From: a virus
Lineage: Duplodnaviria > Caudoviricetes
DNA: 52,160 nucleotides
Reading direction: 5' to 3' (one strand)
Virus record (IMG/VR): IMGVR_UViG_3300033153_005795
Location: 1-52,160 of that record
The notes below the pieces were generated by a model. That model did not search any database. It saw only the letters and a list, made by a program, of their open reading frames with translations, and had not been told where the DNA came from. Shown one piece after another: positions 7,325 through 22,508 of this stretch. The stretch's first letter is position 1, and every line of letters begins with the position of its first letter. Made by a program: the position numbers and the translations under genes.

Positions 7325-9367
7325 CTACATCACCGGAGATTCTGTGGGTGCTGTGGGTGCAGTGGGTAATCCTTCCATTTCACTCATCATTTTCATTTGA
7401 TCTAATGTCTGCTGGGCAGATTCTTCAGGAGGAGGCAATTGTTCCGGGTACTGACCCAGACCTGTCATATGTTGTGCACGGTGTTCGGCAAATTTATCAC
7501 GAACTGCCGCAGATGCGGCATAAAACTCCGGGCGGGCCATAAAGGCATCCAGTACCATCAGGTGGACTTCGTGCAGATCACGTTCACTCCATATTACCTG
7601 GCCGGGCACAGTACCATCACCAAACATAACAATATTCTCAAGCATAGCTCGCCGGTAGTTCTGCCATTCCAGATCACTCCCTACCGGCAGATCCAATCCT
7701 CGCTTTCGGGCTTCGATACGATATTCGATTGGAGTAATAATACCGGCTTTCAATGCTTCATTTAATTCCATCTTCTGCTGTTCAGGTGATTTCGGCTCAT
7801 CGGATTTGATGGTGATTTCAATTTCGTCCGGGTGTGGAAGTGCATTTTCAGCCAGTGTAATCGTTCCATCGTTTGCGTTGAACTTGATACCTGCAAGGGT
7901 ATCGTCGAGCATAGTCATATCAATAATCTTATCTTCCTTCCATATCCCCCTGATAAGACCAAGCATAGATTTGTAACAGCCGCTTACCCCAAGAGCTATG
8001 CTCTTTGCAACGGACGAAAGCGGAACACGAGATAGCTCGTACAGCAGTCCGAGTCCCGACGATGAATCCACTCGTCCCGGAGCATCTCCTGCCATCAACT
8101 CGGTAGGCTGATTAGCAATGTCATCCATTATCTTTAGACCCGTCTCCAGTATCTTTGCAGCAAATATTCCCGGACTCACCGGTTTGACCTGCTGTGGGGA
8201 AATAGGCTGGGGGCTTGTCCAGTCCACTTCGTACCGGAGTCGTTTTATTCCATCTGCTCCCCGCTCCGCTTCTGCGGGGATACCGGCAGTAGAAGGTTCC
8301 AGCAGGAAGCCAAACAGATCCCAATCCTGTGCATTCTGGAACATACGACCGATGGTATATTCAAGTTCCGCATTGATTGGAATAAGAGTATCCACATAGC
8401 TCGGAGGATAGAATGCTCCAGTCTGAATATCACCAACTATACGTATCGGGCGATGGATCTTTCGCTGTGAATAATCGGTGCGGTACAGTTGTCGATAGCG
8501 CTCCTCGTTACCCGCAAAGACAATATACTCTGCAAGATAGTCATCCGGTGTCCACGTCCATACTTCTACAAAATTAGTTACTTTTTCGTGAGTTTTGTCG
8601 GTTTTCTTGCCAACTCCTTTTCCTCCAGACGGATAGTTATTGAACGATACAGAGAACGCATTGCTGCCTCCTGGGGAGATACTACCTTGAAATCTGTTGT
8701 GAGCACGAGAAGGTATCTGACCTGTTGCCACTTCGACAGTAGGTATTTCTTTATAGACGGCTGCCTGTCTGCTTGGCGTTATCATAAGATCCTGTACCCA
8801 GGTGAGTGGTACAGTACGAAATCGTATAATCCCACGCACATCGCCAGCAGAAGCAACGTGAGGAGGTATCGGCAGCAATTCCCAGGGCATTACGACTTCG
8901 ATACCCATCGAATCTTCGTCCTCGATCCATACCATCAATCCAGCCATACCATAGATCAGAACAGTTGGCAGCAAATCCTGCAGTAGTTTTCCTACTTTAT
9001 CAGATGGAAACGCAACGTTCAGTGCCGCTTGTGCAATTCCTCTCTTACGCATACCCTGAAGGCTTATTCCTTTCTGCTTCGTTGCAGGAGCCAGATCCAG
9101 AGCCAACAATCGTCCGAGCTGCGTTTGATATTTCGAGAGTATCCTATCCAACTGGAAGTTCAGCACTCCCGACTCGTCCGTATAAGCTACCTGAAGTGAG
9201 CCGGTCTGATAATTTAGATCTGTAAAGTTTCGAGCACCACGCAAATACCAATGAGCAAGCCACCACTTTATCGCCCGTGGAGCTTGCATCTGTCTGCCTG
9301 CGGCTATCAAGTTTGCGATAACCTCCTCCGACTGTCTCTTATCTTTGGGTATAGTCTGTTGATACAT
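7325..9367 (-). CDS. Portal protein (P22/podovirus-type size)
   Basis: 680 aa, downstream of TerL; AGDAPGRVDSSSGL and C-terminal DLHEVHL..H motifs resemble large portals. Confidence 0.8.
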   Translation of the reverse strand: MYQQTIPKDKRQSEEVIANLIAAGRQMQAPRAIKWWLAHWYLRGARNFTDLNYQTGSLQVAYTDESGVLNFQLDRILSKYQTQLGRLLALDLAPATKQKGISLQGMRKRGIAQAALNVAFPSDKVGKLLQDLLPTVLIYGMAGLMVWIEDEDSMGIEVVMPWELLPIPPHVASAGDVRGIIRFRTVPLTWVQDLMITPSRQAAVYKEIPTVEVATGQIPSRAHNRFQGSISPGGSNAFSVSFNNYPSGGKGVGKKTDKTHEKVTNFVEVWTWTPDDYLAEYIVFAGNEERYRQLYRTDYSQRKIHRPIRIVGDIQTGAFYPPSYVDTLIPINAELEYTIGRMFQNAQDWDLFGFLLEPSTAGIPAEAERGADGIKRLRYEVDWTSPQPISPQQVKPVSPGIFAAKILETGLKIMDDIANQPTELMAGDAPGRVDSSSGLGLLYELSRVPLSSVAKSIALGVSGCYKSMLGLIRGIWKEDKIIDMTMLDDTLAGIKFNANDGTITLAENALPHPDEIEITIKSDEPKSPEQQKMELNEALKAGIITPIEYRIEARKRGLDLPVGSDLEWQNYRRAMLENIVMFGDGTVPGQVIWSERDLHEVHLMVLDAFMARPEFYAASAAVRDKFAEHRAQHMTGLGQYPEQLPPPEESAQQTLDQMKMMSEMEGLPTAPTAPTESPVM

Positions 9368-9695: not shown

Positions 9696-11529
9696 AATAG
9701 TGTTTTCCCTTTCTTCTCTGTTCATTGTAGGTTTTTTTGTAGTGTCTGTCAAGTAAAGCCATCCATTCCTCATCTGTTAAACTGTCTAATTCCGCTCCAC
9801 TTACGATTGGCAGTTTGGCTCCAGGAACCGGTGGCTGCCCTTCCTTTATCCGCTGGAGACGACTCTTCTCCTTATTCGGCTCGTGAATGGAATGTACCCC
9901 ACGGCTATGCACGATGTATTGGCTCATAGCAACCGTATCGATCGCATCGTCAAACGGGAGCAGAGCGAGGTCATACGTAAAATCTCTCGTCTGCGAATAG
10001 AGCATAGAAAAAGGCCACTTCTCTGCCAAATGTGCCGGATACTTAATGAGCCCCTGCTGAAAACGAGGCTCAAGCCCCGCAATCCTGGCCTGCTTCGGGC
10101 TGTTTGAAGGATACCGCACGGGTATAACCCGTGGTGCCCAGAGATCAGGATGCTCCTCGACATATGCTTGCATAGCTTCAACGAACCATACCTGCATCGA
10201 TATAGCCTCAATCCCGATTGCCTTTACCATCCACTTACGGGCGAGGTTATAAATCTGCCGTGTCAACACGGATTCCTTCACCCTTCCCATCCACATATCG
10301 AGCACCCACAGCGTATTATGAGTATCAAACCCCATAACTGCCCCGCAGGAATAATCATTGAACTGCCCCAGTCCAACCGCATAATCCACCGCAACAATCC
10401 TGAAGAGCTTCTTTACAAATTCACCGAAGGGTTCTTTCTTTTCTATGTACGAGTCGGTCTCCGCCTGCCTCTTGTACCATATCATAGGAGCCGTACTACG
10501 AAGAGGCTCATTTTGATAATAAGGATCATCCTGCGGGGCGTCAACCGTGTACTCGTTGCGGCGGGGATGAACAACAAAGAGCCGCTCTGTATCGCTGATA
10601 GGATCGTTGAGGTATTCTGCGTTGAACGCAGCATTGCCGATTTCTGCCCTTCGTACTTCCAGCACTTCCTGTGGCCATTTCTCCGGCCACAACACCTTCG
10701 TATGAGAAGGGGTTTTCATATCGTATTCTATAGCTTTGCAAACACGGCGATTCCAATACTCAAACCGGCTGTCCTGCATACAGGTTGCGTGGTAGAGGAA
10801 CGAGCGGCGGTTAATCAGCGTTCCAATCCAGAAAATAGCAGCCCCCTGCTCAAGCATAGGAATAATCTGCCGGAACAAAATCCCCTCGAACTTCTCCAGC
10901 AGCAATTGTTGTGAGGTCTGCGAATCAGAAGATGGATCGTTTTCAGGATCATCGAGAATAAAGAGCTGCGGACGTGCTCCACGCTTCCTGCCCATCACAC
11001 TGAAACCCTGAATTGTAGCACCGTTCTTCAAGTGAAGATGGTGGCGGTTCCAGATTGCATCCCCTCTGCGGGGCTTCATCTCGCCGAAATCTTCCAGGAT
11101 AAGCTCGTTAGTTGTGAACTGCTCCATTATTCTATCGAAGCGAGCCTCTACCAGAGCATCTGTCGAAAGCCCCAGTGCAATCGGAAAGTACGGACGGGTA
11201 AGCGCCAGAAGCAAAGGAATTTCACAGCCAATTACTGTTGACTTCGCAAATCCACGTGGAGCAGCTTCTGCGTTTCTGGCGTAGCGTCCGAGATCTCTAA
11301 CCATTTCGTAGTGTATCGGGGGAGATTCCTGAAAGCCACTCTTATAAAACGCATTCCCCATAGGTACAAGATAAAATCGCCTGAACAGATCCCACGCCTG
11401 CACCAGCTTGTCAGGTGTGCTTTGATCCATCAACACACTCAATCGGGCTTCCTTCTGCCCCGCAGATGTCAGCTCGAAATAGTCTGCAGGCAGCGGAAAA
11501 TTAGGATTGGGGTCCTGGTTCGGTTTCAT
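9664..11529 (-). CDS. terL: Terminase large subunit
   Basis: APRGFAKST Walker A, FILDDPE Walker B, WIGT coupling motif, RNase H-like nuclease residues VAVDYA..NDYS and DDAIDT. Confidence 0.93.
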   Translation of the reverse strand: MKPNQDPNPNFPLPADYFELTSAGQKEARLSVLMDQSTPDKLVQAWDLFRRFYLVPMGNAFYKSGFQESPPIHYEMVRDLGRYARNAEAAPRGFAKSTVIGCEIPLLLALTRPYFPIALGLSTDALVEARFDRIMEQFTTNELILEDFGEMKPRRGDAIWNRHHLHLKNGATIQGFSVMGRKRGARPQLFILDDPENDPSSDSQTSQQLLLEKFEGILFRQIIPMLEQGAAIFWIGTLINRRSFLYHATCMQDSRFEYWNRRVCKAIEYDMKTPSHTKVLWPEKWPQEVLEVRRAEIGNAAFNAEYLNDPISDTERLFVVHPRRNEYTVDAPQDDPYYQNEPLRSTAPMIWYKRQAETDSYIEKKEPFGEFVKKLFRIVAVDYAVGLGQFNDYSCGAVMGFDTHNTLWVLDMWMGRVKESVLTRQIYNLARKWMVKAIGIEAISMQVWFVEAMQAYVEEHPDLWAPRVIPVRYPSNSPKQARIAGLEPRFQQGLIKYPAHLAEKWPFSMLYSQTRDFTYDLALLPFDDAIDTVAMSQYIVHSRGVHSIHEPNKEKSRLQRIKEGQPPVPGAKLPIVSGAELDSLTDEEWMALLDRHYKKTYNEQRRKGKHYYDISRPNVIG

Positions 11530-13652: not shown

Positions 13653-14062
13653 TGGAAATCTCCTTTCTTCCCGAAAAATAAGGCATAAAATAAAGTTTAT
13701 ACACACAAACGTAATCGTAGTGTGCCCCGCAGAGAGTTACTACGTTCGGGAAGGAAATTTGTTCAACCAGTTATAATTTCACCCTTCTACCGTGCACCTC
13801 GAAAGAAAACGGGGATTTGAGGCCGTTAGAGCAGAATCGAAATTAGGGTACTATACAATAAGTTGGTTAAAAAAGTTATCCTGTCATATTAGGGTATTAT
13901 GACATAATAAATAAATTAACCAATATCGAGACAATAGTACCCTCCTTTTGATGTGGGATAACAGGGGCAAAAAGGGCGATTTTTCAAAAAGAGCAATTTG
14001 CACACTGTTACTTACGTTACACTGGTTGGGAGGGAATATGAGTTAGAGGAAATTTAGACAGA

Positions 14063-14076
14063 AATTTTCACTCGCT
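14063..14076. repeat. AATTTTCACTCGCT box, copy 1 of 3
   Basis: Exact match at 15069-15082 and 21212-21225. Confidence 0.85.
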
Positions 14077-14348
14077 GGAATTTTGAGGGGTATTAAACGA
14101 CGTTGGGTCTTTGGTTATTATCGGCGAAGCCGACAAAGGGGGTCTTTAATATCTACGATGTCCTCTATCCAGTAGGTCTGTTTCGCAGAGTTCAGGACAA
14201 AACGGATACAATATGGATAGTGGATAGAATACGTCGGGTTCGGCGTTTTGGATATACCTGCTCTTGAATAGGTAAAAGGAATTGAATGTCTTGTTTTATG
14301 GAGTTTTGGATAGTGACAGTCCAGAATGTCCTGAATAGGATACGGGGA

Positions 14349-14375
14349 CAAAAAAAACCCCGACATCTGCGGGGC
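14349..14375 (-). terminator. Rho-independent terminator
   Basis: Minus strand GCCCCG-cagatgt-CGGGGT running into a T8 tract. Confidence 0.8.
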
Positions 14376-14420
14376 AAAAAAGAGTGATGGACGGTCGGAC
14401 GGTTAACGGTTAACTGGGTT

Positions 14421-14867
14421 TTACAACAAATACGCTTCACACATTTGCTTTGTCAAAGTTTGACCACCGGTCGATTTGCCAGAGCCGGTGAACGCTGGGA
14501 CGATTGATGCTTTGACATTGCACTTGCCGGCCACAGCTGGATTTGAGTTCACCGCCTGCCAACGGGCGACGTGTTCAACAAAAACCGGTGCGTCAAGTGG
14601 AAACGGCATATTGCCACGAAGGGCAACGTCTTTGGAGTCAATCATATCGATGATGGTGCGGCAAACTTCTTCCGGGTCGACGTCGAGAGCTTCAGCAAGC
14701 CACAAAACGAATACCAGCGGATACTTAAAGCCATCCGGCTGACGTCTCCAGTGAAGTAAAATACGGCCACGTGCCTTTACGTGCTTAAGTACTTGTTCCT
14801 TGATTAGGTCAATCTTATCGGCCACTTCATCGGGTTTGGTGGTTTGGTCGGTTTGTTTGTTACTCAT
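14421..14867 (-). CDS. Hypothetical protein in a self-contained (moron-like) cassette
   Basis: 148 aa from the SD-supported ATG (GAAAGGA); has its own promoter and terminator; possible wHTH (LAEALDVDPEEVCRTIIDM). Confidence 0.75.
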   Translation of the reverse strand: MSNKQTDQTTKPDEVADKIDLIKEQVLKHVKARGRILLHWRRQPDGFKYPLVFVLWLAEALDVDPEEVCRTIIDMIDSKDVALRGNMPFPLDAPVFVEHVARWQAVNSNPAVAGKCNVKASIVPAFTGSGKSTGGQTLTKQMCEAYLL

Positions 14868-14931
14868 TGTCTTATTCCTTTCAAGAAGTCCGACCGTCCA
14901 TCCTCTCTTCACTTGTCAAATAACATTTACA

Positions 14932-14959
14932 ATTATACTCTTGGCTAAATCCTTGTCAA
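14932..14959 (-). promoter_or_regulatory. Consensus sigma70 promoter with UP element
   Basis: TTGACA-N16-TATAAT, preceded by A-tracts at about 14963-14990 on the minus strand. Confidence 0.85.
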
Positions 14960-15068
14960 TACTTTTTTTATATTTTTTTTAATTTTTTTTCGTACCTTGT
15001 AGGTGTGTATATTTTAGACGTGCTATATCCTATGCCCCCCCTTATTTCGGCTTGTCCCCTATCCCAGT

Positions 15069-15084
15069 AATTTTCACTCGCTAT
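15069..15084. repeat. AATTTTCACTCGCT(AT) box, copy 2 of 3
   Basis: 16-bp identity with 21212-21227. Confidence 0.85.
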
Positions 15085-15140
15085 CCCCCTTCCCCTTACC
15101 CTCCCCTTCCCTGTTTATATCTCCTCTCCCCCCTTTTTAT

Positions 15141-15359
15141 TTATCCATTCTTGTTCTGTATTCTTGTCTCCAGCTCTTCTATCTTTTTCCTGTTCGCCTC
15201 TATCTGGTTATCCCTCTGGTCTCTTTTCTCAAGTAATGCCAGGTACTTACTTCCCACTAACCATCCTACCGTTATGCTGCCTACCAGCATCCCCATCACA
15301 AACTCCATATCCGTTCCCGTTATAAATTCCATCTTTCCTATCTCCTTTCTTTCCCCCAT
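15141..15359 (-). CDS. Small single-TM plus coiled-coil protein
   Basis: FVMGMLVGSITVGWLVG TM segment, then a charged helix; start uncertain. Confidence 0.55.
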   Translation of the reverse strand: MGERKEIGKMEFITGTDMEFVMGMLVGSITVGWLVGSKYLALLEKRDQRDNQIEANRKKIEELETRIQNKNG

Positions 15360-15481
15360 AGGTATCTCCCCTCCCCTGGTACCTTAATTTCCGTTTCTTG
15401 TATTATCCCAATACCAAGGTCGGGGAGCTACCTACTTACCTTCACCTACTGCCCGTAGGTGCTCAATTGTCTTATGCCTTA

Positions 15482-15688
15482 CTACCCATACCAATCTTCC
15501 TTTATACACTCTCCCAACTCAATTCCTCTCCCCTCCCCGTAGTGAGGTATATCCCCATTCACTGTTATCCTGCCATTCTGGGATAGCCTAACTACTATGT
15601 AGTCCTCTACATACAACATAATAGGCCCATCCTTACCCGCCTGCTTTACCCTTACACGTACCTTTGGTTGTGCTATCTTTTCAGTCAT
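15482..15688 (-). CDS. Small beta-rich protein, paralog family A
   Basis: Shares a G.I.L.V....L..[DN]G......IP pattern with neighbours and with 36492..36707; AAGGA SD. Confidence 0.7.
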   Translation of the reverse strand: MTEKIAQPKVRVRVKQAGKDGPIMLYVEDYIVVRLSQNGRITVNGDIPHYGEGRGIELGECIKEDWYG

Positions 15689-15713
15689 TCCTTATCTCCT
15701 TTCTATCTCATAA

Positions 15714-15917
15714 TCACACCAATTCAACCCGTCCATACTTATCTGTCTTCAAACCGGCATTATTCTTCTCTGGTATGTACATCTGTAATCTTATCCTACC
15801 GTCCTTCCGAAGGGTAAGTGTCTTATACTTCCCTACCCACAGTTCGATACACCCATCAACCTTTTCTACCAATCTCACAGGAACACCATCCCCTGGATAC
15901 ACTACATACTTATTCAT
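15714..15917 (-). CDS. Small beta-rich protein, paralog family A
   Basis: Closest to 36492..36707 (M.KYVV..., IP..N..GL..D..GR). Confidence 0.75.
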   Translation of the reverse strand: MNKYVVYPGDGVPVRLVEKVDGCIELWVGKYKTLTLRKDGRIRLQMYIPEKNNAGLKTDKYGRVELV

Positions 15918-15936
15918 TTCCTGTTTCCTTTCTATT

Positions 15937-16128
15937 CTATACCTTTATACTACTACCTCGTGGTATGTACTTATTCAATACCACTCTATTGTCATATCGG
16001 AGACTAAACACTTCATACTCTTCACCCTCGTATAACTCTATCCTATCACTGTCAGCCTTCAGTTCTATCTTCCCTGCTATACCATTCCCGTCCGGTGAGG
16101 GCATATAATATACATTATGTACAAGCAT
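15937..16128 (-). CDS. Small beta-rich protein, paralog family A (divergent)
   Basis: IEL...LR.D.R....YIP pattern shared with 15714..15917. Confidence 0.65.
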   Translation of the reverse strand: MLVHNVYYMPSPDGNGIAGKIELKADSDRIELYEGEEYEVFSLRYDNRVVLNKYIPRGSSIKV

Positions 16129-16284
16129 CTCTTATCTCCTATCTTATACCTTACAATGGTAGCCCCAGCGGGTAGGACACCCTTTCCCTGTCTCTCGTCC
16201 TCTTCTCTACTATGCCCCTCTGCCGTTATCTGGGGCTACCTACTACAGACCTCCCTGTCTGACCTCCTTGTCCTACTTATCCTT

Positions 16285-16494
16285 CTATGCTCTCAATCCC
16301 TTATACTTCAACCGCCACTTCTTTCCCTTCTTTCCTGTTACCTGCTCAAACTCTCTACCGTACTGGTCAACCAACATCCCATCATCCATTATCTTGAGCC
16401 GTAGTCCGCCCATTCTTACTGCTGCCTCCCTCTCCCTCTTTACCTCTCTCTTCCTCTTTTCCCTTACCACCGTCTCATAACCATACCCGCCCAT
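16285..16494 (-). CDS. Small basic hypothetical protein
   Basis: AAAGGAG SD; 69-aa ORF. Confidence 0.55.
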   Translation of the reverse strand: MGGYGYETVVREKRKREVKREREAAVRMGGLRLKIMDDGMLVDQYGREFEQVTGKKGKKWRLKYKGLRA

Positions 16495-16515
16495 CGTACT
16501 ATCTCCTTTCTTATT

Positions 16516-16719
16516 TTATAGGGCTGCTTCTGCTATAAACCTACCCCTATCAAAGTTAGGGTTTTCCTGTTCACACCACTCCATTATATCTTCCCCGATG
16601 CTCTCTATAACCATCCTACCCGTCAGCCTCTCCATCTCTACCCTCTCACCATTCTTGTATAATATCTCCGCCAACTTATTGAAGTGCTTCCTTGTCAACC
16701 CTGCCATTCTATCCCTCAC
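16516..16719 (-). CDS. Small helical phage protein (TRKHF...NPNFDR.RF type)
   Basis: Pattern recurrent in small phage proteins; similar to 34405..34611. Confidence 0.7.
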   Translation of the reverse strand: MRDRMAGLTRKHFNKLAEILYKNGERVEMERLTGRMVIESIGEDIMEWCEQENPNFDRGRFIAEAAL

Positions 16720-17062
16720 CCCCTTCCTCTTTCCTACTCTCTGTGGAATATGGGTGTATATGTCCCTCTACATCAAAGAATGCCGATACCTTTGTCTCTA
16801 CTGTCTCTTTTATATCCTTTGCCAGCTCATCCACCTCTCTCATTATAGTCTCCCTGACGTCTTCCTTATCCTCCTTGTCATATTTCTCAAGCCTATCTTC
16901 TACCTTCTGGAGGAGGTTCCTACCCCATATTCCTATGGCCTCTATCCCCCATCCATCCTCTCTCAATCCCACAAACTCCTCATAGGTCATCTCCTCTGGA
17001 GTTATACCCCATTCCCTCTCCGCCACCTCATACTCTTTTCTATACTGCTCTTCCTTATCCAT
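16709..17062 (-). CDS. Acidic protein sharing a motif with the JAB C-terminus
   Basis: SD-supported ATG at 17062; E/D-rich; contains YEEFVGLREDGWGIEAIGIWG. Confidence 0.75.
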   Translation of the reverse strand: MDKEEQYRKEYEVAEREWGITPEEMTYEEFVGLREDGWGIEAIGIWGRNLLQKVEDRLEKYDKEDKEDVRETIMREVDELAKDIKETVETKVSAFFDVEGHIHPYSTESRKEEGGEG

Positions 17063-17087
17063 TGTACTATCTCCTTTCGTTTTACCT

Positions 17088-17861
17088 TTATTCCACCTCA
17101 TTCTCAAATACCGCCGTACCATATGACCCTAATAGGTCAACGTGTATCTCTACCGGTAGCTCAAATCCTTTATTCCTTCTCATCCACGTCATATACTTCG
17201 CTACCATTAACCCCGATGCCACGTATGCACTGTATATGGTCATCCTTGTAGTACAACTCCCTTGCCTGGCCTCTTCATCCGGAAACCAATTCTCCTCCCA
17301 CCATCTCTTTGCCTTCTTACTATTCATAGGCACACAGAATAACCTCATCACTTCCCCCTCTACCCTTATATCCATAAACAACTTCGTCTCCCATCTTGCT
17401 GCCAACTCATATATCTCTTTCCTCGCCCTCATACTATCCACACAACAGAACACCACATCCATACATATATCTATCCACCTCTCATCATCATCTCCTGGCA
17501 GGTTCTCCTGTATCATCTCAAGCCCTATACCTTCCCCCCTTAACCACTTCCTACAATCCCTACCGGTTACCTCCACCTTACTGCTACCAATATCCTGCGG
17601 GGCATACATCTGTGCCCCTACATTCACATCCTCTACTACATCGGGGTCAATCAGTACCAACCGTCGTACTCCCATACACGCCAACTGCAGGGCTACCTGC
17701 CTCCCTATTGCCCCTACCCCTGCTATCACTACCTGATACCTTCCCAGTTGCCTCTCTGTTACCAACCCACTCTGCCTTTCTCTCCATCTATTCATACTCT
17801 GCTTTACTACTCTATACCTCTCATCTGCCCTATCGTCCACATCCCTAACCGTATCCATCAT
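17088..17861 (-). CDS. E1-like ThiF/MoeB-family adenylyltransferase
   Basis: RQSGL arginine, GVGAIG nucleotide loop, IDPDVVEDVN, CVDSMRAR, candidate catalytic Cys in QGSCTT; ATGA-coupled to the JAB gene. Confidence 0.92.
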   Translation of the reverse strand: MMDTVRDVDDRADERYRVVKQSMNRWRERQSGLVTERQLGRYQVVIAGVGAIGRQVALQLACMGVRRLVLIDPDVVEDVNVGAQMYAPQDIGSSKVEVTGRDCRKWLRGEGIGLEMIQENLPGDDDERWIDICMDVVFCCVDSMRARKEIYELAARWETKLFMDIRVEGEVMRLFCVPMNSKKAKRWWEENWFPDEEARQGSCTTRMTIYSAYVASGLMVAKYMTWMRRNKGFELPVEIHVDLLGSYGTAVFENEVE

Positions 17862-18838
17862 TTTACTGCTCCTTTCTTTTCCTTCTTACTTCTCTTTTTC
17901 TTCCTGTTTCCTCTTCTCGTTTTACTACCCCTCCCACTTGTATAGGAAGCCATACTGCTATCCCCCTTTAGCTCCCTCTCGACTTCCTCTATATCCTTCC
18001 TTGTGCATCCAAATAGAGCTGTTCCCCACGTCCTTATTTCCTCTGCTGTCCATCCTAACTTCCTCAATGACCTAAACTCCTCCCACGATATATCCAGATA
18101 CGACTCATCCCCCAACTCATCCCCTTCCTCCCTAAACCACGGATACTTTAGCCTACTATATTCATCCCACATATCCCCCGTGGAACACTGTGTTCCCTGT
18201 GCCCCCTCTCCTCCTAATGAGGGTAGATAATCCCTCTTACCTGTGCTATCATCCCACCACCTCTGGCTCTGGGCTGGTACTATTGCCTGTGCTTTCTGTA
18301 CCTCTATATTCCTGGCTACCTCTTCTGCCCATTCCTTATGCCTGCTGCCTTCAAACTCCATCTCCCAGTCAACCACCGTATCCAGCTCTATTGTTACCCT
18401 GTGTTCCCCAAATAACTTATAGCTTAATTCCGTGGTTATATCGTCCCCTTCTCCTATTACCATCATTATTGCCCAGTCCCCTTTACCGAATATCTCCTCG
18501 AACGTCCGCCTATCTACCCCACTTGGGGTACTCTTCATTCCAGGGTGGGTATGTATCCATATCCTCATACACTCCAGCGGCTCCTTACCCGCTACTATCA
18601 TCTCATCGAAATACCTTGCTACATCATCATCATCCAACTCTACTGTTACCCTACTTACCTTCTGCTTTACTGTTACAAAGTCCACTATACTCAATACATC
18701 CTCCGGACTCTTACTTATCCCAAACCCACTAAACTCATTGCCATCCGCCTTACTACTTATGTACCTTATCTTTGCCATTACATACGGACTCATCCTTACT
18801 ACCAGCTCATCTGCCTTCACTTTCTTGTCCTTTGCCAT
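17858..18838 (-). CDS. JAB/MPN (JAMM) metallopeptidase, deubiquitinase-like
   Basis: E(FSGFG)...WIHTHPGMKSTPSGVD gives a complete E-HxH-x7-S-x2-D JAMM motif. Confidence 0.92.
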   Translation of the reverse strand: MAKDKKVKADELVVRMSPYVMAKIRYISSKADGNEFSGFGISKSPEDVLSIVDFVTVKQKVSRVTVELDDDDVARYFDEMIVAGKEPLECMRIWIHTHPGMKSTPSGVDRRTFEEIFGKGDWAIMMVIGEGDDITTELSYKLFGEHRVTIELDTVVDWEMEFEGSRHKEWAEEVARNIEVQKAQAIVPAQSQRWWDDSTGKRDYLPSLGGEGAQGTQCSTGDMWDEYSRLKYPWFREEGDELGDESYLDISWEEFRSLRKLGWTAEEIRTWGTALFGCTRKDIEEVERELKGDSSMASYTSGRGSKTRRGNRKKKRSKKEKKGAVK

Positions 18839-18865
18839 ACTACACACTCCTTTCTTGTACCTCTT

Positions 18866-20140
18866 TTATTGAGGTATAGCTACATACTGCCCTTGTTCAG
18901 TTTCCTTTTCTGCCTCTCTACAGTATCCACATATCTGCTGTCCGTCCTCCCAGTCTTCAGGCCACATCCATACCTTCCCGCACCTCGTACATAGTACCGC
19001 CTCCTCAAGACACTCTTTACATACCCTTATATCCATCCTCCCTGGAACGCTTACTTTCCTCTCGTTATAGAGGCATCTCACACGATGCCACCTACATACC
19101 TCCCTGCCACACCTAAAGCACTTACGTATAATCCCATTATTCTCCAGATAATCCTTCGCACATCTGCTACATATCCTATCCTTCTCCCACTCCTCTATTT
19201 TATCTTCTCCCGCCTTCTCACTACATATTACACACCTCGATGTTATTGCCTCTCCTTTGGTCGTACTACATCCCCCCTGGATATGTACCAACCTACCGCA
19301 CAGCGCACATCTCTCCAGTTCACTATCCTCTATCCATTCCTTACATATACAGCACCTATGGTGGTCTGTTTGCCCTCTATTCGCTGCTATCTCTGCCATT
19401 GACCTGTATGGTGCACTTCCCAAGTCATACGTCCCCAGCACTGCCTTTATTACTTCTAATATTGCTATTATATCCCCCTCCCTCTTCGCCCTCCACGCTA
19501 TTCTGTCCCCGCCACTTCCCAGGCATATTCTTCTCCAGTATCCCGCCATACCTGCACTCAAGTATGGGTGTGCCTCCTGTCCACTCTCTGATGCTGTCTC
19601 CTCCCACACCAACACCCCCATCTCTTTGTTCATCCTTACCTTAAACGGCCCAAACTCCAACTCCAACCCTTTACATTCCAACCTTACCTTTGGTAGATAT
19701 ACTATCAGTTCCTCCTGTACTTTGCCTCTCCCAACACTGAACTTCACTATCTCTGCTCCCTCTGTCTCATTCTCCAGATATGCTATGGCATCCCTTACCC
19801 CTCTCGGTATCCCTCCCTCCTCTTCCAGTCGTTTCTTCTCTCTTTTCTTTATTGCATACAACCCATCAACCTTCCGCCTCTGGAATTCTATCATATCTTC
19901 TATCAACCTACTCGACCTACTACGCATAGATATGGCTAACTGTCTTAATTCCGCCATTCGCCACCTGCCCTTTAACCACGTCCCATTCCATATACATTCC
20001 TCTGCATCCCCCACCAGTTCATCCATCCGCTCTACATCCCTCGCTACCCTCTCTAACCGTTCCATCACCTCCGGTACCTCCCCTTCTCTCCTTCCGGTAT
20101 TCCTTACTAACCAGTCAACAACTCTATCCTGTATATCCAT
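18866..20140 (-). CDS. Prokaryotic E2-like domain fused to N-terminal helices and a C-terminal multi-CxxC zinc-finger region
   Basis: AHPYL..RRICLGSG..VLGTYDLGSAPY fits the HP...C E2 signature; about 9 CxxC-type pairs in the last ~160 aa. Confidence 0.75.
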   Translation of the reverse strand: MDIQDRVVDWLVRNTGRREGEVPEVMERLERVARDVERMDELVGDAEECIWNGTWLKGRWRMAELRQLAISMRSRSSRLIEDMIEFQRRKVDGLYAIKKREKKRLEEEGGIPRGVRDAIAYLENETEGAEIVKFSVGRGKVQEELIVYLPKVRLECKGLELEFGPFKVRMNKEMGVLVWEETASESGQEAHPYLSAGMAGYWRRICLGSGGDRIAWRAKREGDIIAILEVIKAVLGTYDLGSAPYRSMAEIAANRGQTDHHRCCICKEWIEDSELERCALCGRLVHIQGGCSTTKGEAITSRCVICSEKAGEDKIEEWEKDRICSRCAKDYLENNGIIRKCFRCGREVCRWHRVRCLYNERKVSVPGRMDIRVCKECLEEAVLCTRCGKVWMWPEDWEDGQQICGYCREAEKETEQGQYVAIPQ

Positions 20141-20174
20141 CGTATTCCCCTTTCTTCTTCTTTCCTTATACCCT

Positions 20175-20203
20175 GGGGGTGAGGTCTAACCTACCCCACC
20201 CCC
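20175..20203 (-). other. GC-rich stem-loop between the Ubl and E2 genes
   Basis: Minus-strand GGGGGUGGGGU-agguuag-ACCUCACCCCC (11 bp with one G-U pair); no U-tract. Confidence 0.55.
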
Positions 20204-20230
20204 TGTCGTACCTACCTACTAACCGTCAAC

Positions 20231-20500
20231 CTATCCGCCTATCAGGAGATAGCCCTTGGCCCCTGTTATCTTTACTGGGGTTATTGATATTCTATCCCCA
20301 TCCCGTAGGATTGTCCCTTTACCGGTAGCCATATCTACCTTTACACCGTTCAGGAGTACCTTATACTCCGCTGGGTCTCCAAATCCCTCTTCTGCTGCAA
20401 ATACTTCACCGATGGTAGTCCCCTCTGCTATCTGTACCTCTTTATTAAACCCTCCATCGGTATGCCAACACGACAAACTTATTGTACCATTCATAGCCAT
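20231..20500 (-). CDS. Ubiquitin-like beta-grasp protein (ThiS/MoaD-like)
   Basis: 89 aa from the SD-supported ATG; EGTTIGEVF, VLLNG, ILRDGDRISITP beta-grasp signatures; ends KITGAKGYLLIGG. Confidence 0.9.
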   Translation of the reverse strand: MAMNGTISLSCWHTDGGFNKEVQIAEGTTIGEVFAAEEGFGDPAEYKVLLNGVKVDMATGKGTILRDGDRISITPVKITGAKGYLLIGG

Positions 20501-20562
20501 CTTCTTTACTCCTTTCATTTTCTCTTCTACTTTCTTTACCTTATTTACCACTTACCACTCTC

Positions 20563-20853
20563 TCATACACCCTCTACTGTCAAGCCCTGTTCCTGTGCCA
20601 GTACCTTCAACTGTATCCTATGCCTTCTTCTTACCGGTGTCATCTCTTCTGGCCCAATCTCCAATAACCTCACTACCTTATCCCTGTTGTTACCCTCTAT
20701 CCTGGCTATCGGTACTCCATAGCTCTCCAGTACCCCGTGCCTTGCTACTAACGGGGCAGGTGCCCCTATATCCTGCCCTTTTAGGAACCCTATCAATACC
20801 TCCAGCACGGTCTCCCTTACTCCTGGGGCTTCTGCTTCTATCCGCACATACAT
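20563..20853 (-). CDS. Hypothetical protein, first gene of the Ubl operon
   Basis: GGAGG SD before ATG 20853; immediately downstream of the 20990-21017 promoter. Confidence 0.65.
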   Translation of the reverse strand: MYVRIEAEAPGVRETVLEVLIGFLKGQDIGAPAPLVARHGVLESYGVPIARIEGNNRDKVVRLLEIGPEEMTPVRRRHRIQLKVLAQEQGLTVEGV

Positions 20854-20914
20854 ACCTCCTTTCTTCCCTCTCCCTCTGGTTACCATTACCCATCCCCTCT
20901 CCCTATCCTTCTAA

Positions 20915-20954
20915 TACGCTCGCACGCACGCTCGCACGCTCGCACGCACGCACG
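20915..20954. repeat. CGCA/CGCT tetranucleotide microsatellite
   Basis: acgctcgcacgcacgctcgcacgctcgcacgcacgcacg. Confidence 0.85.
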
Positions 20955-20989
20955 TCCGCTTTATAAGAGGATGCCCGTCTGCTGCTGCT

Positions 20990-21017
20990 ATTATACGATG
21001 ACTCCGGCGAATGTTAA
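20990..21017 (-). promoter_or_regulatory. Sigma70-type promoter of the skewed early module
   Basis: TTAACA-N16-TATAAT with T-tracts upstream. Confidence 0.7.
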
Positions 21018-21074
21018 ACAAAAAACCTGAAAAATCTGAAGATAGCAAGATAATGCAAAAAAACAGCAAGAAAG

Positions 21075-21192
21075 TTATAACCCTATAAGGTTATAAGGTT
21101 GTAAGGTTATAAGATTGTAGTGCCGCAGGGCTACAACCCTACATCCCTATAACCCCGTAACCCTATAACCTTATACCCCTACAACCCTATAG
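21075..21192. repeat. Inverted array of degenerate 8-bp repeats (YTAYAACC)
   Basis: Left arm GGTTATAA GGTTGTAA GGTTATAA GATTGTAG, spacer TGCCGCAGGG, right arm CTACAACC CTACATCC CTATAACC CCGTAACC CTATAACC TTATACCC CTACAACC. Confidence 0.85.
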
Positions 21193-21211
21193 AATTTAGA
21201 TCTTACTCATA

Positions 21212-21227
21212 AATTTTCACTCGCTAT
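21212..21227. repeat. AATTTTCACTCGCT(AT) box, copy 3 of 3
   Basis: Exact match to 15069-15084. Confidence 0.85.
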
Positions 21228-21438
21228 GAGATAGACTTTGCCCCGCAGATGTGTCCCTGAATTTCTTTTCCCCTATAAGTTTTGTGATGCGTTTTAGTTC
21301 TGTTGCCCATTTGAATTTGCCGCACCTTTGGCAAACCTCCCCCACCATCATATATTGCTGTTCGTTTTCTTCAAAATAAACTTCTTCCCATTTGTGGCCG
21401 AGAAACTTACAGATTATTTTCTTTATCTCCATCTTCAT
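21217..21438 (-). CDS. Small DUF1660-like protein
   Basis: ICKFLGHKW...CQRCG motif; ATGA overlap with the helicase stop. Confidence 0.6.
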   Translation of the reverse strand: MKMEIKKIICKFLGHKWEEVYFEENEQQYMMVGEVCQRCGKFKWATELKRITKLIGEKKFRDTSAGQSLSHSE

Positions 21439-22508
21439 TCTCCTTTCAATCTCCACATCCATAGTACTTTGTTGCCTACGATTACTGCATACCTTTCCAC
21501 GTTCAGATCCTGGGCTGCACGTTTCAAGGTTCTCTCTGCAATTCTCTTTTGTTTTGCTGCGTCTATGGTTTCCTGGACTGGCTGGGGTTTGCTCCGCAGA
21601 AATTCCTTCAGCCATTTCCTTGCACTCTCTTGTTTTGTCTGGGTAGGTACGAGATAATCTGCAAATACCTCATCTGCTGTTTTCTTCACTCGTGTCGGCT
21701 CAAATGCACAGATACTCGCAATGGTCGGACCGTCTTTTGTTTCCACCTTTTTTCGTTTCAACGAGTATGCCAGGCCGTCTGGTTTTTCTGCTACATTTAT
21801 CTTTGCCGGTAGCAATAACCTGCGTCCTTCCATCTCCGTATCTTCTACTACCAGCCACACCGCCCTGGCTGCTGCAGTAAATCCGACCGATCCGAGCATT
21901 CTGAAAATTGCCAGCTTGGACATGTCTTTATTCAGGTGTGAAATTCCCACGATTGCAAGTTCGTATTTGGTTGCCAGCTTCACGAGAGGGGCCAGAAACG
22001 TTCTTACTTCGATGTTTCTGTTTTCATCTTTCCCACCCATATATGCAGCCACCGGGTCTATCATTATCAAACGCACCGGTGGGCCTTTCTCCGCCTGCCC
22101 TTTCACCGCCATCTCCAGCAGTTCACTGAAACCTTTAAGGGAGAAAATATCGATCTCCGTTTCTCCCCCACCTTCTTCCTCTCTTTTCACTATCTTTGCG
22201 GCAGTCATAAATAGGATGTTCTTCATCTCTGCACCACCAGCCAATAGCTTTGTTACAAGGGTGTGTTTAAGACTATCCTCTGCAGTCAAGATTAAAGCTG
22301 CTCCAACCTGCGGGGCAAAATCACAATCCGGCCACTTTCTTCCCTTGCTTACCTGTGTAGCCATAAACAATCCGAGATGCGTTTTTCCTGCCCCCGGATT
22401 TCCTGCCAGCATTGTCAATTCACCAAGAGGTACACGCTCCGGCCAAAGCCACTTTATTTTCTCTGGTGTTATTTCGTCTCCACGAATAAGAACTGGTTTG
22501 ATCTGCAT
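21435..22508 (-). CDS. AAA_25 / RepA-like (RecA-fold) replicative helicase with C-terminal winged helix
   Basis: IKWLWPERVPLGELTMLAGNPGAGKT Walker A, LTAED, IMIDP Walker B, ISHLNK, GSVGFTAAARAV. Confidence 0.88.
   Translation of the reverse strand: MQIKPVLIRGDEITPEKIKWLWPERVPLGELTMLAGNPGAGKTHLGLFMATQVSKGRKWPDCDFAPQVGAALILTAEDSLKHTLVTKLLAGGAEMKNILFMTAAKIVKREEEGGGETEIDIFSLKGFSELLEMAVKGQAEKGPPVRLIMIDPVAAYMGGKDENRNIEVRTFLAPLVKLATKYELAIVGISHLNKDMSKLAIFRMLGSVGFTAAARAVWLVVEDTEMEGRRLLLPAKINVAEKPDGLAYSLKRKKVETKDGPTIASICAFEPTRVKKTADEVFADYLVPTQTKQESARKWLKEFLRSKPQPVQETIDAAKQKRIAERTLKRAAQDLNVERYAVIVGNKVLWMWRLKGE

Follow-up and report, generated by a model that had tools for sequence, protein, structure and literature searches.

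Does the small acidic gene at the end of a phage operon for ubiquitin-like conjugation carry a free copy of the C-terminal segment of the operon's own JAB peptidase, and what might such a copy do? The locus in question lies in the IMG/VR virus record IMGVR_UViG_3300033153_005795, whose 52,160 bp represent a complete virus with direct terminal repeats and are referred to as a whole as the window. On the minus strand the open reading frames (ORFs) of the window follow each other in the order ubiquitin-like protein (Ubl), E2-like protein, JAB/JAMM peptidase, E1-like adenylyltransferase and acidic ORF. The two proteins compared, and the segments within them, are located as follows.

17858..18847, minus strand: JAB/JAMM peptidase (Prok-JAB, E 2.4e-5)
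17954..18097, minus strand: C-terminal module of the JAB peptidase, residues 251-298, delimited by BLASTP, alignment and AlphaFold2 (AF2)
18014-18091, minus strand: 26-residue segment of the JAB tail, as given in an earlier note on this DNA
17861..17959, minus strand: basic tail of the JAB peptidase, residues 297-329, net charge +13, predicted to be disordered (AF2, charge count)
16709..17062, minus strand: orphan acidic protein of 117 amino acids, pI 4.5, net charge -17, predicted with low confidence to be all-helical
16853..16996, minus strand: free-standing copy of the module, residues 23-70 of the acidic protein, delimited by BLASTP, alignment and a hidden Markov model (HMM) of the JAB tail
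16913-16990, minus strand: 26-residue segment of the acidic gene, as given in the earlier note

Similarity between the peptidase tail and the acidic protein

As judged from their sequences and from the predicted models, the two segments are truly related and represent a small, putatively helical module of about 45 residues, which is tethered in the peptidase and free in the acidic protein. The earlier note had described a motif shared by the JAB tail and the acidic gene; both 26-residue segments are indeed present as quoted, and they align without gaps with 12 of 26 residues identical. By BLASTP the match extends to 16/45 identities and 25/45 positives with 0 gaps and an E value of 9e-6 for the pair. 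The corresponding Smith-Waterman score of 75 is reached by 2 of 5000 shuffled versions of the acidic protein (Gumbel p 3.7e-4) and by 0 of 5000 shuffled versions of JAB residues 190-329 (Gumbel p 6e-5). These p values are weaker than the BLAST E value because the charged composition of the proteins inflates the scores of random sequences.

The same relation is recovered by an HMM built from two JAB tails only, namely that of the window and that of a sister phage (L002), when it is run against the 638 stop-to-stop frames of at least 40 amino acids in all six reading frames of the window. The acidic ORF is the sole non-self match (E 2.3e-5), and the next frame follows at E 0.98. The signal comes from the JAB tail of the window, since the tail of the sister phage alone misses the acidic ORF (E 7.2). 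A regular-expression scan of the six frames likewise finds two copies of the module only.

Within the peptidase, whose residues are numbered here from the GTG at 18847 (gene callers place the start three residues later), the catalytic core comprises residues 1-190 and is predicted with a local distance difference test score (pLDDT) above 90 from an alignment of 36 rows. Its JAMM motif is intact, with E38, H99, H101, S109 and D112 invariant in alignments of 20 and of 36 homologues, and its best Foldseek matches are Rpn11 and archaeal JAMM proteins (E 3.5e-9 and weaker). The core is followed by an acidic linker of about 60 residues, of which residues 198-253 are predicted by AF2 to be disordered, and then by the module, for which three helices are predicted (residues 255-263, 268-279 and 283-293; pLDDT 58-74). 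The basic tail completes the chain. Strongly basic C-terminal tails rich in Lys and Arg are found in two further JAB homologues as well (L017 and P0014), and many shorter homologues have an acidic end with a single Trp.

For the acidic protein, single-sequence AF2 prediction yields a poor overall pLDDT of 62.7, with values of 61-72 in the module, and depicts a helix, a loop and a long helix. The helices at residues 27-35 and 40-60 sit at positions equivalent to the JAB helices 255-263 and 268-279, the two proteins having been modelled separately. Comparison of this low-confidence model with the Protein Data Bank (PDB) by Foldseek gives a best E value of 4.8, and in the ESM Atlas the acidic protein obtains feature scores of 0.77 and structure rows below the Atlas's own bar. 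Scans of the acidic protein against PHROGs, NCBIfam and PADLOC return chance-level rows only (E of at least 0.0087).

Distribution and origin of the acidic gene

As an accessory gene specific to this lineage, the acidic gene occupies a slot of variable content, bounded by E1 on one side and by a conserved gene downstream on the other. Two elements next to it are needed in order to describe this slot.

16516..16719, minus strand: gene of 67 amino acids 3′ of the acidic gene, with a homologue at 9882-10070 of the sister phage (phmmer E 1.5e-4)
17064..17077, minus strand: ribosome-binding element of 14 nt ahead of the acidic gene, AAAGGAGATAGTAC

The distribution was assessed on 23 viral loci obtained from IMG/VR by a single pattern scan with a profile of the JAB alignment; with the JAB of the window as a single protein the scan gave no pattern match. 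Among all ORFs of these loci the module profile recognizes the JAB of the sister phage only (residues 259-306; next best E 2), and the same holds for a set of 48 JAB homologues (next best E 0.32). The module of the sister phage scores E 3.1e-29 with a profile that includes this module itself, and the tail of the sister phage alone matches the window JAB with E 0.0085. The record of the sister phage (51.7 kb, 97% complete) contains the module once, in its JAB. Strings resembling [RK]-x-x-G-Y-D, which had been noticed by eye in several jumbo-phage JAB tails, were discarded as further copies, as the module profile misses them.

No homologue of the acidic protein is present in any of the 23 loci, nor in the whole record of the sister phage. 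A word-indexed library of 5.8 billion proteins yields only the acidic protein itself among 8 candidates, while the three-row module profile, run against 1.84 billion representatives at E ≤ 0.001, returns its three source proteins and five repeat proteins. Furthermore, tblastn of the acidic protein against GenBank phages gives no match at E ≤ 1, and a metagenome scan produced 194 pattern matches with 0 confirmed. The gene is accessory rather than a conserved fifth component of the operon, because the module is restricted to this lineage and homologues of the acidic protein are absent from the loci, the sister record and both libraries. The proposal of the earlier note that the acidic protein is such a fifth component thus finds no support in this form, and the co-occurrence of the acidic gene with other copies of the operon, which the note had named as a check, amounts to 0 of 23 loci. 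Mirroring of the JAB tail in a neighbouring gene was looked for in 22 loci, L005 having been dropped since the regular expression found no HxH motif there. It gave two weak matches only, neither comparable to that in the window: one of 12 amino acids with E 0.031 and one with E 0.001 to an ORF antisense to E1.

The variable nature of the slot becomes apparent from comparison with the sister phage, which has the small genes flanking the operon in common with the phage of the window. Between E1 and the homologue of the 67-amino-acid gene it harbors three unrelated genes, namely a Ubl-like ORF of 69 amino acids, a basic ORF of 146 amino acids and an acidic ORF of 160 amino acids. Judged by its homology, the 67-amino-acid gene marks the far edge of the slot. 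The first of the three ORFs (8702-8911 of the sister phage) lies directly 3′ of E1 and is a second ThiS-like ORF with a phmmer E value of 0.0036 to the Ubl of the window; it has no terminal Gly.

Inspection of the sequence ahead of the acidic gene suggests that it is probably co-expressed with the operon, since it is co-oriented, follows the E1 stop codon by 25 nt and possesses a strong ribosome-binding site of its own. Its most likely start codon, ATG at 17062, follows the AAAGGAG of this site by 8 nt. For the interval 16500-20600 a look through public sequencing runs turned up no run and no RNA holder. The element AAAGGAGATAGTAC recurs as an exact second copy at 16496-16509 on the minus strand, ahead of the gene starting at 16494; if up to two mismatches are allowed, three matches are obtained, and at least three were found in 3 of 100 shuffles. 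Beyond this lie three tandem small genes (15482-16128, minus strand) of 63-68 amino acids, which are paralogous, with 38% and 33% identity to the first and a BLASTP E value of 2e-7 for one pair. The fourth gene beside them, at 16285-16494, aligns poorly to the three.

The tandem duplicated small genes and the duplicated ribosome-binding element indicate that local duplication is active in this region. As we infer from the sequences, the most likely source of the acidic gene itself is a partial duplication, within this lineage of phages, of the 3′-terminal portion of JAB. Across the 48 aligned positions of the module the free copy shares 16 residues with the JAB of its own genome and 9 with the JAB of the sister phage, and the two JAB copies share 15. 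Both this greater proximity to its own JAB and the absence of the gene from the sister phage fit such an origin.

Proposed role of the module and competing explanations

Targeting and docking elements of deubiquitinases are usually built in this way, as a small module attached through a flexible tether. By analogy the tethered module may serve as a targeting or docking element of the peptidase, and the free copy could modulate the peptidase as a decoy that occupies the same docking site, much like the competitor for a common partner that the earlier note had considered. Alternatively, it could pair with the module and the basic tail of the peptidase. Either route would shift the balance between conjugation and removal of the Ubl. 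The charges of the segments that follow the module are opposite, +13 in the JAB tail and -17 for the acidic protein, which carries an acidic helix and tail after the module; this supports some direct or competitive relation between the two proteins. The sister phage has neither the basic tail (its JAB tail has a net charge of -3) nor the acidic gene.

Pairing of this kind has a precedent in the MPN proteins, where the C-terminal helices of Rpn8-Rpn11, CSN5-CSN6 and BRCC36-Abraxas pair with a partner that bears similar helices. The JAB core of the window, with its best matches to Rpn11 and archaeal JAMM proteins, resembles these proteins, and a comparable pairing of helices is suggested here between the tail of the peptidase and the free module. 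Unlike the MPN partners, however, the acidic protein has no MPN domain, and pairing in the phage system is a proposal. Prediction of a complex of the Ubl, the full-length JAB and the acidic protein, carried out without controls, gives a score of 0.01 (mark 0.32) and weighs neither way on binding.

Taken as one reading, a shared module with a lineage-specific duplicate that modulates the peptidase has, in our estimation, about an even chance of being correct, whereas any particular binding partner of the module would have to be named with clearly less assurance. Several observations weigh against this reading. The pLDDT values of the module are low in both models, and its third helix is not separate in that of the acidic protein. 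Conservation across all three copies concerns mostly residues of the core type (L, G, I, G and L) together with aromatics, a pattern that speaks for a common fold but not for a common binding surface. With respect to the duplication, the contrast between 16 and 9 identities is not significant (Fisher p 0.16). The nucleotide identity between the module copies is just 74/144, so that any duplication would be old or the similarity could stem from domain shuffling. Finally, the arrangement is found in one phage only (the protein occurs on 4 contigs with identical sequence), and the link between basic tail and acidic gene rests on two genomes.

In a bolder form of the modulator reading, the phage would come equipped with an antagonist of its own deubiquitinase. 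Through contacts between the modules and between the acidic helix and the basic tail, the free copy would displace or neutralize the peptidase, and the Ubl conjugates formed by E1 and E2 of the phage would persist at a chosen stage of the infection. This form is considered unlikely. If true, a viral ubiquitin-like system would be regulated by a decoy that is genetically linked to it and derives from a so far undescribed domain family. The shared module alone is a feature of one lineage with a putative function, and its general importance is modest. In practical terms, the module on the peptidase and its free copy would provide two small expressible handles with which a partner could be pulled down, and which could thereby identify the docking site or a substrate.

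Shared ancestry might also exist without shared function. The acidic gene would then be a fast-evolving small accessory gene of the phage, derived from or resembling the JAB tail, that plays no role in the Ubl pathway. Such an explanation agrees with the orphan status of the acidic protein and the lack of conserved linkage to the operon in the 23 loci, with the differing content of the slot in the sister phage, with the run of small duplicated genes downstream and with the conservation of mainly core residues. It fits less well with the position of the gene, tight behind E1, co-oriented and equipped with a strong ribosome-binding site, and with a similarity that is well above chance within the genome. 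Moreover, two Trp and two Gly residues as well as the hydrophobic pattern are kept, suggesting that the fold is maintained. On balance, absence of any role in the pathway appears improbable.

A further explanation regards the module as a degenerate three-helix helix-turn-helix (HTH) of the resolvase/IS30 type, which together with the basic tail (net +13) would attach the peptidase to nucleic acid, while the acidic protein would be a non-binding or antagonizing copy. Three of the five non-self matches of the module profile (P0030-P0032) are tandem repeat proteins of the HTH_7, HTH_23, HTH_38, HTH_31 or DUF433 type. The pattern L-[RK]-x-x-G-aromatic-[ST]-x-x-E-I and the F-G-x-T turn of the module align to tandem HTH repeats of the HTH_7, HTH_23, HTH_38 and DUF433 families; hhalign assigns 70-94% probability to this alignment, which runs through the turn with a 4-residue insertion. 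In addition, the ESM Atlas structure neighbours of JAB residues 246-300 include DUF433 and HTH_38/HTH_23 clusters with TM scores of 0.48-0.49; the feature search with the same residues gave no usable match.

These matches are weak leads towards a resolvase/IS30-type three-helix fold rather than a UBA fold, and they are treated as leads only because the library matches sum many weak repeats, the hhalign targets were picked post hoc by the same profile, the Atlas rows fall below the Atlas's own bar and the Pfam HTH models are silent. The 67.8 bits of the match to P0029, for example, are made up of 22 identical stretches that contribute about 1 bit each, and P0033 is a leucine-rich repeat protein. 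Neither HTH_38 (PF13936) nor HTH_7 (PF02796) matches anywhere in the phage at E ≤ 10, and neither appears in the Pfam scan of the tails. The recognition helix of an HTH is basic or polar, whereas the third helix of the module is acidic in all three copies, unlike a DNA-recognition helix. Besides this and the 4-residue insertion, which set the module apart from the HTH families, the JAB of the sister phage lacks the basic tail. An HTH with a nucleic-acid anchoring function is therefore regarded as distinctly unlikely.

The weakest explanation is that suggested by the earlier note, which had called the motif UBA-like: a helix-loop-helix that binds the operon's Ubl, with the peptidase tail capturing substrates and the acidic protein acting as a stand-alone reader of the Ubl. 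UBA domains are common on eukaryotic deubiquitinases such as USP5, where, as in the window, the enzyme that removes the tag carries a small tethered helical unit whose helices 1 and 2 are joined by a Gly-aromatic loop; the low-confidence prediction of a small three-helix unit for the JAB module would suit this, and the JAB copy of the window shows L-x-x-L-G-W followed by T-x-E-E, resembling a UBA loop. In UBA domains the loop residue before the Gly-aromatic pair is hydrophobic, a conserved Met or Leu (M/L-G-F/Y), whereas in the three copies of the module this residue is L, D and R (before GW, GW and GF, respectively), so the hydrophobic position is not conserved. Searching all six reading frames of the phage with the Pfam UBA model PF00627 gives 0 matches, whether the limit is set to E ≤ 0.01 or to E ≤ 10, and a Pfam-A scan of both tails and of the sister-phage tail at E ≤ 10 finds no UBA, CUE or related family. 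The profile search of PDB sequences yields nothing below E 0.17 and no UBA among its matches, and no UBA family is among the 10 ESM Atlas structure neighbours listed for JAB residues 246-300. By these criteria the module is not a recognisable UBA domain, and a UBA-like Ubl binder is judged very unlikely.

The surrounding operon and related systems

The remaining members of the operon and their positions are as follows.

20231..20551, minus strand: Ubl, ThiS/MoaD-like (Pfam ThiS, E 1.3e-5; aligned to 12 viral homologues)
18866..20140, minus strand: E2-like protein of 424 amino acids with a Cys-rich C-terminal half (alignment of 17 homologues)
17088..17861, minus strand: E1-like adenylyltransferase of 257 amino acids with a single ThiF domain (Pfam ThiF, E 3.6e-22; NCBIfam and PADLOC matches)

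The 12 viral homologues of the Ubl end at, or within a few residues of, a conserved ..P.K..G-A, and the Ubl of the window carries a 9-residue extension beyond its ..P.K..GA end, finishing in GG (20231-20260). For this extension there would be two possibilities: JAB may trim the Ubl back to the conserved Gly, in the manner reported for BilA of E. aridi, or the GG at the very end may be the one in use. In the E2-like protein H191, P192, C206 and G208 are invariant in 17 sequences and constitute an HP..C catalytic signature; the protein has no Pfam match of any kind, and no Pfam, PADLOC or PDB-sequence match to the UBC fold was obtained. A profile of its Cys-rich part matches RING2, MSL2, LIM and TRIM zinc fingers in the PDB weakly (best E 0.0012), matches that are likely aided by the bias towards Cys. 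Possibly the protein combines an E2 with an E3-like zinc domain. The start of E1 overlaps the JAB stop codon. E1 reaches 36.3 bits with the PRTRC ThiF model TIGR03736, far below the cut-off of 144.75, and no other PRTRC family was matched in the NCBIfam scan; its match to the PADLOC BilD model is weak (E 1.1e-4).

Among the 23 viral loci JAB is present in all, with E1 directly 3′ of it in 22 (locus L003 ends at JAB). An upstream Ubl match is found in 18, an ORF with the HP motif between Ubl and JAB in 22, and a Cys-rich ORF with at least two CxxC motifs also in 22 of the 23. The four-gene core is conserved, as follows from this recurrence of JAB, E1, Ubl and HP-motif/CxxC ORFs. Among uncultured viral contigs, phage-borne Ubl conjugation operons are widespread, with 23 loci from the single pattern scan, several of which lie on contigs of 170-190 kb. 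GenBank phages gave no match to the operon by blastn, nor to JAB by tblastn at E ≤ 0.001.

The closest described counterpart is the bacterial Bil system, in which the gene order bilA-bilB-bilC-bilD is constant (Chambers et al., 10.1101/2023.09.26.559546). In E. aridi the peptidase trims Ubl residues beyond the conserved Gly, and the E1 protein BilD consists of an inactive domain, an active domain and a Cys domain (10.1101/2023.09.26.559546). The phage operon agrees with Bil in the co-directional order Ubl-E2-JAB-E1, in a JAMM peptidase with intact catalytic motif and in Ubl residues past the conserved Gly. In contrast to the multidomain BilD of E. aridi, as described there, the phage E1 is a single ThiF domain, and unlike Bil the phage E2 bears a Cys-rich extension. 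The PADLOC profiles of Bil match the phage operon weakly. Whereas Bil resides in a bacterial defence island, the operon described here is phage-encoded and is thus not an antiphage defence in a bacterial genome. The accessible parts of the Bil literature make no mention of a C-terminal module of JAB or of an acidic fifth gene, though the supplements may list phage-borne homologues.

In four of the loci (L006, L007, L018 and L023, on contigs of 57-192 kb, three of them at 179-192 kb) another E1-like ORF is located some 6 kb upstream of the operon, and the JAB ORFs reach 630-683 amino acids, of which 360-410 form the tail.

With respect to its other genes, the phage of the window encodes a terminase large subunit, a DnaB/AAA_25 helicase-like gene and an RNase H-fold gene. 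The region 14001-22000, in which the operon lies, differs in composition: the GC skew of the plus strand goes to -0.58 at 16-18 kb and to -0.54 at 18-20 kb, and most other 2-kb intervals lie between about -0.03 and -0.27. Owing to this extreme skew, the coding (minus) strand of the operon is unusually purine-rich.

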